Virus record (IMG/VR): IMGVR_UViG_3300029749_000251
Location: 1-6,336 of that record
Length of the DNA: 6,336 bases
DNA from: a virus
Taxonomy: Duplodnaviria; Heunggongvirae; Uroviricota; Caudoviricetes
Reading direction: 5' to 3' (one strand)
Shown: piece by piece, positions 3,192 through 6,336 of the stretch
Layout of the letters: each line of letters begins with the position of its first letter
How positions within the stretch are numbered: the stretch's first letter is position 1
Notes under the pieces: generated by a model
Told to the model about the DNA's origin: nothing
What the model saw: the letters and a program-made list of their open reading frames with translations, nothing else
Database searches by the model: none
Position numbers and translations under genes: made by a program

Positions 3192-3444
3192 TTGATTTTC
3201 CTTTTATGTATACGGGCTTAAAAGGATACCACCGAGCCTGAAGTGGTGAAAAGACAGGCACATAACAGCTAAGTATTTTCAACCAGAGAGAATCCTTAGC
3301 GTTGTGGTGAATGCGGCTCAGCGTACGCGGGTTAAGGTTGAGGCTGACAGTCGACCTTCTGTGGATACCCACCCGCCTGGTGTGCAACCTTCGCCAGGCA
3401 CCGGGAGGCACCCGGCACCACAACTTTATGCTGTGTGTAGTCTT

Positions 3445-3491
3445 GGCGGTACCAGCTTGTACCCTTGCTTCCGGCTGGTACCGTCCTTTTT
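3445..3491 (+). terminator. Terminator-like hairpin: 10-bp perfect stem (CGGTACCAGC / GCTGGTACCG) followed by CC-TTTTT
   Basis: 3447-3456 pairs perfectly with 3474-3483, extendable by G-U/G-C pairs at 3445-3446 with 3484-3485. The loop is 17 nt. A T5 run lies at 3487-3491. Three GTACC copies, two of them full GGTACC palindromes (3448-3453, 3459-3463, 3477-3482), allow mutually exclusive alternative pairings. Confidence 0.35.
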
Positions 3492-3704
3492 GCAAAACAG
3501 AGAAGAGCATCACCGGACGACGGGCTCATAACCCAATCCATCCGGGCGGCTGCCACCGCAGGTGTTCTTCTCTGTTTTGTGGAGAAACTAACCGCCCCTA
3601 CGGGGGCATTTATGGAAATGTAATTGACTCAATAATCGCCGGACGGTGAGGGCTTCCTTTTACCCGAATTCAGCGCGGTGCAGCGCATATACGTGGAGAA
3701 CAAA

Positions 3705-4594: not shown

Positions 4595-4899
4595 TGATCA
4601 CTTTTACCGACAAAGAACTGATTAAAGAAATTAAAGAGCGTATCAGCAGCCTTGACGTGCGAGACGATATTGAGCGCCGTGCTTATGAAATCGCACTCCT
4701 ATCGCTGGAAGTAGAACCAGATGAACGCGAAGCTTATGAATTATTCATGGAAAAGCGTTTCGGTGACTTAGTAGATCGTCGGAGAGCAAAAAACGGCGAT
4801 AACGAATACATGGCATGGGATATGACTCTCGGTTGGATCGTCTGGCAGCAACGAGCTGGTATCCATTTTTCAACAATGTCACAGCAAGAGGTGAAATAA
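4594..4899 (+). CDS. yfdT: Small hypothetical protein (101 aa), YfdT-like
   Basis: TAATG stop/start overlap with the preceding gene, with GGAG 5 nt upstream. The translation is charged and helical-looking. Length and position match yfdT as recalled. Confidence 0.65.
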   Translation: MITFTDKELIKEIKERISSLDVRDDIERRAYEIALLSLEVEPDEREAYELFMEKRFGDLVDRRRAKNGDNEYMAWDMTLGWIVWQQRAGIHFSTMSQQEVK

Positions 4900-4948
4900 T
4901 GGAGCCATACAGCCTCACACTCGATGAGGCCTGTTCATATCTGATAGA

Positions 4949-4972
4949 GCCGCTATATGGCGGTTTATTTTT
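4949..4972 (+). terminator. Candidate intrinsic terminator of the yfdRST-like operon (short GC stem followed by a U-rich tract)
   Basis: GCCGC (4949-4953) pairs with GCGGT (4960-4964) around a 6-nt loop, followed by TTATTTTT (4965-4972), 50 nt downstream of the yfdT-like stop. The stem is short, so this is weak to moderate. Confidence 0.35.
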
Positions 4973-4987
4973 GCCTGGAGAATTAAG

Positions 4988-5179
4988 ATGACCGATACCA
5001 GCCTGATTCCTGAGAAAGAAGTGATGAACAAGCTCGGTGTTTCATCACGTCAGACAATCTGGAACTATACCAAACGGCACGGATTTCCGAAGCCAGTCAG
5101 AACCCACCCCAAATCATACCTTCGTGAAGCTGTTGAGGGGTGGATTCTTAACGGTGGCGTTAATCAGAAATGCTCCTGA
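4988..5179 (+). CDS. AlpA/Xis-family small DNA-binding protein (prophage excisionase / transcriptional regulator)
   Basis: 63-aa ORF with GGAG 7 nt upstream. The translation (…KEVMNKLGVSSRQTIWNYTKRHGFPKPVR…YLREAVEGWI) fits the AlpA/Vis/TorI-type winged-helix pattern (hydrophobic-x-x-hydrophobic, TGLSRSTIY-like, FPKP). It occupies the position of torI/ypdJ in KplE1. Confidence 0.8.
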   Translation: MTDTSLIPEKEVMNKLGVSSRQTIWNYTKRHGFPKPVRTHPKSYLREAVEGWILNGGVNQKCS

Positions 5180-6336
5180 TGTGCCAGAACAATTTATCAG
5201 CGTGAAGCTCATACACTTTGCGCTGAGCCTCTATCCAGTCGTGTTTATTGTATACTGACATTATCCCGCCAAGTTCATGACCGAGCATTCGCTCAGTAAC
5301 ATGAGGCTCGACATTCATCTCGGACAGACGTGTAACAAGCGTTCTTCTGAAATCGTGTGTTCGCCAGTAACCTAGATCCATCCCTCCCCTTATTCTATTT
5401 ACGAATCGGTTGGCTGCAGCGATGCTGATCGGCTTGCTTATGTCTTCTCCAGGGAAAAGAACATCATTATACGTTGTCATGGCCTTTTCGAGGAAAGGCT
5501 TAATTTGTTCGAAGATTGGACGGCGGATAACATTACCCATCTTGCTATGCTCTTTCGGTACGGTCCATACGTTTTCCAGCAGGTCAAATTCTGTCTTTTT
5601 TGCCAGCCTAAGCTCTGAGAGCCTCGCCCCCCACAGCATAAGCATCTGATGAAGTAGCTTATTTGACGTAGACGCACGGCTTCTTTCAATAGCAAGCCAA
5701 ATCTTAGCCAGTTCGTGATACGACAGTACCCGATCCCCTACCTCAGCGCGGGAGCCGAAGTCCCTTGGTTGGATGCTCATAATTGCGCAACTATCTATCA
5801 ACTGACGCCGCATGCACCAACTTATTGCTGATCTTAGTTGACTTAGCACCTGCCTTGCTCGGCGTGGATTATCTCTTTCTTCTTCGGTAAGCAGGTCAAC
5901 CCATTGCTTAACCGTGATAGAAGATGCCGGACGATTAGGAAAGGCGTCATGCATGCGCTTCATAACCGTTGATCGGTAAAGTGCCTGGGTCTTTTCTCTG
6001 AGAGTTGTAGAGACGTAGTTGTCGAACCAGTAGTCGAGACACTGGGCGACCGTCATGGAGTTCTCCACCTTCTCTTCAAAATAAGTGCGTGGATCCGTTC
6101 CTGAGAAATAGAGCTTTCGCAAGTCAGCAGTGATCTGTCTGGCATCCTTCAAAGACAGGGATGGGTATCGACCAAGCCCAAGTCGATTAGGCTTGCCATG
6201 CCAGCGATAGCGGTACTGGAACTGGATGACCCCCTTCGGTGAAATTCGTACGCTGAGGCCATCGGCATCAGCCACTTCTTGTGGGCCCGAATATGGTTTA
6301 CCATAAATAGTACGCAGTTTTGTGTCGCTTATAGCC
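5160..6336 (-). CDS. int: P4-type tyrosine integrase (site-specific recombinase), N-terminus a few codons beyond the window end
   Basis: The N-terminal arm-binding region (…DTKLR…GLSVRISPKGVIQFQYRYRWHGKPNRLGLGRYPSLSLKDARQ) matches the P4/CP4-57 integrase pattern. The C-terminal catalytic residues are visible: R in WGARLSEL, HxxR in THDFRRT, H/W in MLGHELGG, and the Tyr nucleophile in VYNKHDW. The frame stays open from 6275 to 6336 (…AISDTKLRTIYGKPYSGPQEV-ADADG…), so the listed GTG at 6273-6275 is internal and the true start is off-window. Confidence 0.95.
   Translation of the reverse strand, partial: AISDTKLRTIYGKPYSGPQEVADADGLSVRISPKGVIQFQYRYRWHGKPNRLGLGRYPSLSLKDARQITADLRKLYFSGTDPRTYFEEKVENSMTVAQCLDYWFDNYVSTTLREKTQALYRSTVMKRMHDAFPNRPASSITVKQWVDLLTEEERDNPRRARQVLSQLRSAISWCMRRQLIDSCAIMSIQPRDFGSRAEVGDRVLSYHELAKIWLAIERSRASTSNKLLHQMLMLWGARLSELRLAKKTEFDLLENVWTVPKEHSKMGNVIRRPIFEQIKPFLEKAMTTYNDVLFPGEDISKPISIAAANRFVNRIRGGMDLGYWRTHDFRRTLVTRLSEMNVEPHVTERMLGHELGGIMSVYNKHDWIEAQRKVYELHADKLFWHIRSISD

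Follow-up and report, generated by a model that had tools for sequence, protein, structure and literature searches.

The right-hand part of the window (the whole 6,336-nucleotide stretch of DNA analyzed here) holds a small excisionase-like gene and an integrase gene that converge and overlap at their 3′ ends, which raises the question of whether the two form one recombination module, mark the meeting of two elements, or conceal an att site. We find it very likely that a degraded lambdoid prophage of the sbcB-integrating family (2851, Sf101, HK140, HK544, and mEp234) has kept its site-specific recombination module intact here, the small gene being the cognate excisionase of that module. The features concerned are collected in Table 1.

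Table 1. Features of the convergent int/xis region, in window coordinates unless another locus is given
Feature	Position	Strand	Description
Vestigial P22/SfIV-type xis 5′ fragment	4899..4942	+	First 14–15 codons, MEPYSLTLDEAC...
Intrinsic-terminator-like hairpin and T tract	4947..4973	+	Directly upstream of the small gene; terminator scan
Shine-Dalgarno GGAG	4977..4980	+	7 nt ahead of the small gene's ATG; read from sequence
xis-like gene	4988..5179	+	ATG start, 63 aa, 7.2 kDa, pI 9.8, predicted RDF (excisionase)
Tail-to-tail overlap	5160..5179	both	20 bp common to the xis-like gene (+) and int (-)
P4-type tyrosine integrase (int)	5160..6336 in window	-	TAA at 5160–5162, runs off right edge, 392 aa
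att core copies	L001 19900–19912 and 26553–26565		Four-way alignment

The open reading frame list and the sequence bear out the convergence and the overlap reported in the initial annotation, the stretch shared 3′ to 3′ being exactly 20 bp; the families assigned there to the two genes also hold. On the + strand it encodes the C-terminal end of Xis (part of V58, N59-Q-K-C-S, and the stop codon), and on the - strand the C-terminal end of Int (...R-S-I-S-D and the stop codon). As the genes overlap by their 3′ ends, a change of start codon, which had been put forward as a way to remove the overlap, is unable to do so. Comparing 22 related loci from ten or more enterobacterial genera, plus phages (Escherichia, Serratia, Pantoea, Erwiniaceae, Chimaeribacter, Phytobacter, Candidatus Erwinia, Xenorhabdus, Proteus phage, Stx phages, and metagenomic contigs), we found that 21 keep xis and int convergent, with overlaps of 14–23 bp and Xis identity down to 46%; at the Pantoea dispersa locus L021, a 281-aa gene sits between int and xis. 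Where the genes overlap, the int stop codon always lies opposite Xis codons 58/59, in a conserved GG[V/I/F]N motif, and each Xis residue beyond N59 adds 3 bp to a base length of 8 bp, giving 14, 17, 20, or 23 bp by clade. Because the convergent overlap recurs in 21 of the 22 loci, it is not a product of chance, and the comparison indicates that this layout is ancestral and native to the Int/Xis clade. The overlap is limited to the poorly conserved, variable tails of both proteins, which are probably disordered.

Such a conserved geometry could itself be a regulatory device, a coupling that the initial annotation had also raised, in which colliding transcription units or antisense duplexes act as a functional analogue of lambda sib retroregulation. 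In a lysogen, constitutive, autoregulated transcripts from Pint would run through all of xis as natural antisense RNA and keep leaky excisionase expression off, and after induction, N-antiterminated pL transcripts running antisense through int would limit integrase. This proposal is compatible with the cognate-module reading and would add a function to the overlap. The tail-to-tail overlap and the reading-frame relationship are kept clade-wide, the genes leave no space between them for a terminator, no conserved intrinsic terminator follows either the xis or the int stop codon, and Φ24B Int and Xis are transcribed from separate, opposing promoters (PMC3064807). However, the overlap lies in poorly conserved tails and its length drifts with that of the Xis tail, as is also expected from neutral inheritance of a compact arrangement; the gene between int and xis at the P. 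dispersa locus argues that direct abutment is dispensable; and the Φ24B study explained regulation without antisense effects (PMC3064807). Rfam returned no match in or near the overlap. We regard a regulatory device as rather unlikely, and doubt that selection has maintained the conserved 3′-3′ overlap as an antisense or transcriptional-interference switch.

The small protein is best placed by its similarity to the experimentally validated Xis of Φ24B, with which it is 47% identical over 58 of its 63 residues, and by its match to PHROG 66, "excisionase and transcriptional regulator" (1.9e-8). These two lines are stronger evidence than the AlpA-family label from Pfam, which is weakly supported, the PF05930 (Phage_AlpA) score of 17.8 bits lying below the gathering cut-off of 21. 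NCBIfam gave no match for the protein, and a profile search of the PDB gave only the AlpA-family protein 8c3t at a non-significant E of 0.084. The AlphaFold2 model (pLDDT 84.5) has a β-α-α-β(wing)-α layout, and its closest structural neighbors in Foldseek were MerR-like winged helices, Pukovnik Xis, and RdfS (E ≥ 0.03; best E 0.03 with TM about 0.5–0.6, not statistically significant). Taken as consistency checks only, these PDB sequence and structure comparisons are consistent with, rather than proof of, a winged helix-turn-helix fold for this small basic protein. The open reading frame is under purifying selection when compared with its Serratia homolog (pN 0.21, pS 0.64, dN/dS ~0.17); against locus L007, synonymous sites are saturated. 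Our protein homology search yielded only close relatives (≥62% identity), and more distant ones came from tblastn against phages and a scan of genome contigs. By tblastn, the protein is 100% identical in Sf101, HK544, mEp234, and the phage-2851 record. We predict that it is the cognate excisionase (recombination directionality factor, RDF) of the neighboring integrase; the paper describing Sf101 nowhere mentions an excisionase (PMC4159516).

It is improbable that the protein acts primarily as a transcription factor, whether by activating int, in the manner of AlpA in CP4-57, or as an antiterminator, like Pseudomonas AlpA, rather than as an architectural RDF. It does resemble winged-helix regulators of the AlpA type, members of the AlpA family differ in function, and CP4-57 AlpA acts on int transcription according to the Φ24B paper (PMC3064807). 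Homologs without an adjacent integrase also occur, at loci L009 and L010. By contrast, the closest characterized relative, Φ24B Xis, resolved an attL-attR plasmid when co-expressed with Int from an arabinose-inducible promoter (PMC3064807), which argues for a direct role in recombination, and the gene's position beside int is fixed in 21 of the 22 loci.

By its domains and motifs the integrase is a tyrosine recombinase of the P4 phage type, and the site alignments suggest that it recombines at the core described below. Its ATG lies 2 nt past the window, at the equivalent of position 6338, according to the RefSeq annotation of the 100%-identical strain U1 (RefSeq coordinates of int, L001 25160–26338). 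We found an N-terminal Arm-DNA-bind_3 domain (PF13356, 8.2e-18), a C-terminal Phage_integrase domain (PF00589, 2.3e-16), and a match to PHROG 1 (2.4e-72). All catalytic motifs are there (GAR239LSE, H328DFR331, GH354ELGG, and SVY363), and the catalytic residues are all conserved in an alignment with the functional Φ24B Int, to which the protein is 56% identical. With the integrases of HK140 and Sf101, both intact phages, it shares 98–99% protein identity.

The boundaries of the element place this gene pair within a single prophage. E. coli chromosomes that carry the element between dacD and sbcB match the window at 100% identity, and the window represents nearly the whole of one 6,653-bp prophage remnant that occurs in at least 73 complete E. 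coli genomes. A 13-bp att core, TTTCACGATTACG, which belongs to the sbcB coding sequence at its 5′ end, bounds the remnant on both sides, the left copy lying ~100 bp left of the window and the right (attR) copy 217 bp beyond its end. When the empty site of K-12 is aligned with U1 attL, U1 attR, and HK140 attP, the classic attB/attP/attL/attR relationship emerges; no direct repeat in the region is stronger than the TTTCACGATTACG pair, the only two copies of which lie 6,653 bp apart. The core equals the 13-bp attP reported for phages 2851 and Sf101 from junction sequencing (PMC4159516). In HK140 and Sf101 it lies upstream of int, where the HK140 record marks a putative attP. The initial annotation had expected an att or tRNA target just past the right edge, and attR is indeed there, but a scan of 15 kb around the element turned up no tRNA, and from the alignment the insertion target is the 5′ coding end of sbcB. 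The remnant consists of the prophage ends and a few early-left and tail-fiber genes; attL, attR, int, and xis are intact, and the pL/N/cI region is gone.

The module itself begins at a recombination scar. The window is 99% identical to phage SfIV up to ~4940, inside an SfIV gene annotated "excisionase," after which homology ends. The dead stub of a P22-type xis just upstream of the module marks the mosaic junction, at ~4943, where the sbcB-specific module starts. The hairpin between this junction and the small gene reads GAGCCGCTATATGGCGGTTT followed by ATTTTTG in a terminator scan, and the equivalent site of HK140, in which the stem is kept and the loop differs, is annotated as a "rho-independent terminator." It is missing at the diverged Serratia locus, where just 24 nt separate the upstream gene from xis; since diverged relatives do not have it, the terminator part of the regulatory model given below is lineage specific. 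On the - strand, a weak terminator-like site is present at 5003–4990, within the variable N-terminal codons of xis; it was considered as an int terminator and, given that position, set aside. A + strand hairpin with a T run inside int (5481–5510), considered as a terminator for xis or pL, is conserved in no diverged relative and was set aside as a chance occurrence.

It is very improbable that the integrase belongs to a second, adjacent element whose boundary would fall at ~5160–5179, as the initial annotation had suggested. Support comes only from an apparent contrast with KplE1, whose TorI and IntS genes do lie at opposite prophage ends, as that annotation had noted (PMC2951348), alongside the KplE1-like genes yfdR/S/T in the left part of the window. 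Against it, one att pair brackets everything from an AT-rich membrane-protein gene to int, with the integrase at the right end of the 6,653-bp element; we found no third att copy or extra element boundary between the gene sets and none near 5160–5179; the same xis/int pair is contiguous in the intact single phages HK140 and Sf101; and the true mosaic junction lies upstream of xis and is a scar within one phage lineage. The empty-site alignment refutes these tandem islands. An att core within the 3′ end of the integrase gene, for which nothing speaks beyond the absence of intergenic space, is exceedingly improbable, being refuted by the core mapped in sbcB, upstream of int (attB/attL/attR/attP alignment; published junction sequencing), with no core copy at ≤2 mismatches anywhere near 5150–5200 and no core-like sequence in 5100–5250. 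The locus is instead what the initial annotation had itself named as evidence against its proposals, one element whose att repeats lie at a distance from the gene junction.

The cognate-module reading has close precedents. In Φ24B (vB_EcoP_24B), xis adjoins the 3′ end of an inverted int that has its own 5′-RACE-mapped promoter (Fogg et al. 2011, PMC3064807). The modules of Φ24B and Stx2 phage 86 resemble the one studied here in that the P4-type integrase has the opposite orientation to that of lambda and a promoter of its own, predicted in the present case, beside attP, and in Φ24B, too, an AlpA-like Xis of ~60 aa ends the pL operon and converges on the int 3′ end with an overlap, which is 20 bp here rather than 17 bp because this Xis has one extra C-terminal residue. 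Xis and Int of Φ24B are homologous to the proteins described here (47% and 56% identical), and its int upstream region can be aligned with this one, including three invariant GTAC motifs. The two differ in att specificity (the sbcB 5′ coding end here), in the int start codon (ATG here, TTG in Φ24B), and in that the present module sits in a 6.65-kb remnant without pL, N, and cI. The sbcB-integrating phages 2851, Sf101, HK140, HK544, and mEp234 carry an essentially identical module (Jakhetia et al. 2014, PMC4159516; GenBank annotations), with the same 13-bp core, int/xis DNA that is 98–99% identical (about the same in phage 2851 as in the others), and the same 20-bp overlap, which in HK140 and Sf101 is annotated between an AlpA-family gene and the integrase. 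These phages are complete and inducible, whereas the window is a decayed prophage. The converging int/xis pair is the normal recombination module of sbcB-inserting E. coli phages, previously described and known already. A literature search on convergently transcribed xis and int yielded only papers on actinomycetes and ICEs, none directly relevant.

Two better-known arrangements are partly shared. The IntS-TorI systems of KplE1 (CPS-53), HK620, and Sf6 are alike in that the integrase is transcribed separately from the RDF, as predicted here too (Panis et al. 2010, PMC2951348), and KplE1 also has an integrase promoter within the att arm, as proposed here, and homologous neighboring genes yfdR/S/T. 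However, attP of KplE1 lies between torI and intS, leaving the genes at opposite ends, whereas here attP is upstream of int and both genes are at the attR end; xis and int meet tail to tail because attP is not between them. KplE1 integrates at the argW tRNA and this element in the sbcB coding sequence. As in lambda and P22, xis would be the distal, antitermination-dependent gene of the pL operon, and arm-type-like repeats are found on both att arms, three int proximal and two distal. In lambda, xis and int are co-directional, with a 5′-3′ overlap and control through pI and sib; here they lie on opposite strands and share their 3′ ends.

Together, these comparisons suggest a model for how the two genes might be expressed. 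We propose that int is transcribed leftward from its own promoter, located in the ~215 bp that separate its start codon from the attR core, a stretch immediately beyond the right edge of the window. This position derives solely from alignment with the region around the Φ24B 5′-RACE site, and a σ70 scan with strict settings gave no promoter ahead of int. Three conserved, arm-type-like TGGTACRC repeats lie between the int ATG and the attR core; five of the six copies in 6.9 kb fall in the two att arms and share one orientation, and the three int-proximal GTAC sites do not vary across an alignment with Φ24B among its members, where they bracket the Φ24B transcription start. A second motif, T[GA]GACA, recurs at conserved positions in the int-proximal arm (+62, +102, +166, and +176 from the int ATG), and both motifs are candidate binding sites, TGGTACRC for Int and T[GA]GACA for Xis. 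We predict that int expression would be independent of the phage repressor and negatively autoregulated; in KplE1, an integrase promoter overlapping the att region leads to negative autoregulation (PMC2951348). In intact phages, xis would be the last gene of the early-left (pL) operon and, lying behind the intrinsic terminator in this lineage, would be made only after induction and N antitermination. In the remnant, xis is probably silent and the element locked in place because the pL/N/cI region is gone.

These results correct the view of the locus: a converging integrase/excisionase pair is the standard layout in this phage clade and points neither to tandem islands nor to a gene-internal att site. 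If the overlap did act as a switch, sib-like retroregulation would arise from gene geometry alone and would be common to Φ24B-type Stx phages and sbcB-integrating phages. Both the RDF identity of the sbcB-type Xis and any regulatory value of the conserved overlap matter for how stable Stx2c and serotype-converting prophages are. Because its att sites, int, and xis are still intact, the remnant might be mobilized if Xis came in trans, for example, from a superinfecting 2851- or Sf101-type phage.

The small AlpA-like gene (xis) and the P4-type integrase gene (int) converge, as the initial annotation had described, and 5160-5179, exactly 20 bp, is common to both; because the shared stretch consists of their 3' ends, the overlap cannot be removed by start-codon reassignment. 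In E. coli strain U1, whose chromosome is 100% identical, int encodes, by annotation, a tyrosine recombinase of 392 aa and has its ATG 2 bases outside the window; the protein contains Arm-DNA-bind_3 and Phage_integrase domains (Pfam) and a complete catalytic set (R239, H328, R331, H354, and Y363). The xis ORF is preceded by a Shine-Dalgarno sequence (GGAG) 7 nt upstream of its start and is under purifying selection against its Serratia homologue (pN 0.21, pS 0.64, dN/dS ~0.17). It scores below threshold for Pfam AlpA (17.8 bits, cut-off 21) and matches PHROG 66, "excisionase and transcriptional regulator," at 1.9e-8. The AlphaFold2 model of Xis is a β-α-α-wing-α winged helix (pLDDT 84.5; ~52 for the last C-terminal residues), for which the closest solved folds, none statistically significant, are MerR-like winged helices, mycobacteriophage Pukovnik Xis, and RdfS.

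Coordinates of the xis/int region and attachment-site features in the window and in the identical E. coli U1 locus (L001)
Feature	Window	L001	Strand	Basis or remark
xis-like ORF, ATG, 63 aa	4988-5179		+	ORF list and sequence
int open frame	TAA 5160-5162, runs past right edge		-	ORF list and sequence
Intrinsic-terminator-like hairpin and T tract	4947-4973			Upstream of xis; terminator scan
Dead stub of P22/SfIV-type xis, first 14-15 codons (MEPYSLTLDEAC...)	4899-4942			Directly upstream of the AlpA-like gene
attL core	-100 to -88	19900-19912
attR core	6553 to 6565	26553-26565
Att-arm repeat stretches	6339-6565 (first stretch)	26339-26565; 19969-19988		TGGTACRC, T[GA]GACA

The int/xis DNA has counterparts at ~98-99% identity in Stx phages 2851 and 1717, Sf101, mEp234, HK544, HK140, and others, and in the RefSeq annotations of HK140 and Sf101 an AlpA-family gene, the last of the leftward early block, shares the same 20-bp overlap with the integrase. 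Serratia odorifera, Pantoea, Erwiniaceae, Chimaeribacter, and metagenomic contigs yielded homologues with 62-74% protein identity, whose genes overlap by exactly 20 bp; all of these loci adjoin sbcB except L007, in which attP is unintegrated. At 46-51% Xis identity (Stx phages 86, AU6Stx1, and Φ24B; Proteus phage Brookers; Xenorhabdus; Phytobacter; Candidatus Erwinia), the convergent overlaps measure 17, 23, or 14 bp. In all overlap cases the int stop codon faces codons 58/59, within the conserved GG[V/I/F]N motif of Xis, and the overlap is therefore confined to the variable tails of both proteins; its length equals 8 + 3 × (Xis residues after N59). The sole exception is a Pantoea dispersa locus (L021), where a 281-aa ORF separates int from xis. 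This ORF (L021 3177-4022), downstream of int and sharing 13 bp with the xis 3' end, has a weak, sub-threshold HEPN_RiboL-PSP match and may be a defence-type cargo gene. Two further loci (L009 4001-4192 and L010 1850-2041) encode a 71%-identical homologue of the small protein with no adjacent integrase, downstream of a tape-measure gene and beside a gene of DUF1233, a putative excisionase family.

Antisense or transcriptional-interference coupling of xis and int, one of three readings offered initially, may operate: a conserved terminator is missing after both stop codons, which makes convergent read-through plausible. However, overlap length drifts, the overlapped tails are poorly conserved, and the Pantoea locus departs from the layout, all of which neutral inheritance of a compact arrangement fits equally well. 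A hairpin at 5481-5510 was discounted as a terminator, as it is not conserved.

In Φ24B, int has the opposite orientation to lambda int and is expressed from a promoter of its own, located by 5'-RACE, that frees it from CI control; the sole xis candidate, an ~8-kDa ORF adjoining the int 3' end, is oriented as lambda xis, bears a distant likeness to AlpA, and, when co-expressed with Int, led to resolution of an attL-attR plasmid (Fogg et al., PMC3064807). That paper does not take up the overlap, antisense effects, or terminators; the Φ24B genome record places int at 236-1405 and xis at 1389-1571, overlapping by 17 bp. Over essentially their full length, the window's Xis and Int are 47% and 56% identical to those of Φ24B, respectively.

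We aligned both U1 junctions with the K-12 empty site and with the sequence annotated as a putative attP upstream of int in phage HK140. In attL the left half comes from attB and the right half from attP; in attR the origins are reversed. All four sequences share the core TTTCACGATTACG, which on the opposite strand reads as the 13-bp attP published for phages 2851 and Sf101 (CGTAATCGTGAAA; PMC4159516). The core copies, spaced 6,653 bp apart, belong to the region's highest-ranking direct repeat, which extends over 30 nt at 87% identity and contains the 13 bases as an exact match; no further core-like sequence was found inside the element, including near 5150-5200, where another copy had been envisaged. 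The expectation of an att or tRNA target past the right edge held for the att site; a scan of 15 kb around the element turned up no gene for a tRNA or tmRNA. Integration is into the sbcB coding sequence (L001 19866-19912 and 26520-26565; window -134 to -88 and 6520 to 6565), and the U1 element lies between dacD and sbcB. The phage arm replaces the sbcB 5' end, giving exonuclease I a new N-terminus (MTGTDKQPTFLFHDY instead of MMNDGKQQSTFLFHDY) and a new promoter-proximal region, while the original start is displaced and orphaned at attL. Given the att pair, the core alignment, and the U1 context, the window is nearly the whole of a single decayed prophage; E. coli chromosomes carry it at 100% identity, and 73 complete genomes contain 80% of it or more. 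The single att pair and the contiguity of xis and int within single phages refute assignment of int to a second, tandem island, and the mapped core refutes placement of att within the 3' end of int.

Read from the left, the prophage has an AT-rich gene for a membrane protein, genes for tail-fibre assembly and for a truncated tail fibre, early-left genes resembling yfdR/S/T, and finally xis and int. The first of these (892-1971, +), in a 30% GC block (400-2000), encodes a 359-aa multi-pass membrane protein with no matches in Pfam, PHROG, or NCBIfam; the gene adjoins the attL arm, a position occupied in serotype-converting phages such as Sf101 by O-antigen modification genes (oacB), and may be an uncharacterised moron for modification of the O-antigen or surface. 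The truncated tail-fibre gene (2683-2991, -), which lacks its N-terminus and is followed by an intact assembly gene (2090-2683, -; Caudo_TAP, 3.8e-25), is evidence of internal deletion shrinking the prophage to 6.65 kb. An STnc100 sRNA-like match (Rfam; 3271-3494, +; 42.3 bits, below the gathering score of 47; E 9.5e-7) lies within a hypothetical gene annotated by RefSeq as frameshifted. In E. coli 48956 and 47258 (NZ_CM135148.1 and NZ_CM135147.1), the IS21-family element ISEc62 (istA/istB) interrupts the remnant, and the window matches in two pieces over 8.5 kb.

The terminator-like hairpin before xis, annotated as a rho-independent terminator in HK140 and missing from the Serratia relative, suggests that xis would be reached only by antiterminated pL transcripts. 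SfIV homology ends at the adjacent stub, which Sf101 shares without the start codon; the stub marks a mosaic breakpoint, where a P22-type xis-int module was evidently replaced by the sbcB-specific one through recombination inside the old xis. TGGTACRC occurs six times in the 6.9-kb region, five of them in the att arms and all in the same orientation (three between the int ATG and the attR core, two at 56-80 bp from the attL core). T[GA]GACA has four copies on the int-proximal arm, at conserved distances from the int ATG; its Φ24B version is TGTTCA on the int-sense strand. Att-arm positions of both motifs are conserved across the clade, and the T[GA]GACA copies are, speculatively, candidate excisionase (RDF) or accessory-factor sites. 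The int upstream region can be aligned clade-wide, Φ24B included, with three invariant GTAC positions flanking the Φ24B transcription-start region. IntS and TorI repress the KplE1 IntS promoter, which overlaps attL (PMC2951348); by analogy, we predict that int would be negatively autoregulated.

Together, these results show that the overlap is real, correctly observed, and ordinary: the layout is the native, previously described architecture of a known Int/Xis module at a known integration site. Of modest interest would be experimental proof of the predicted RDF role of the sbcB-type protein and a possible regulatory effect of the conserved 3'-3' overlap.
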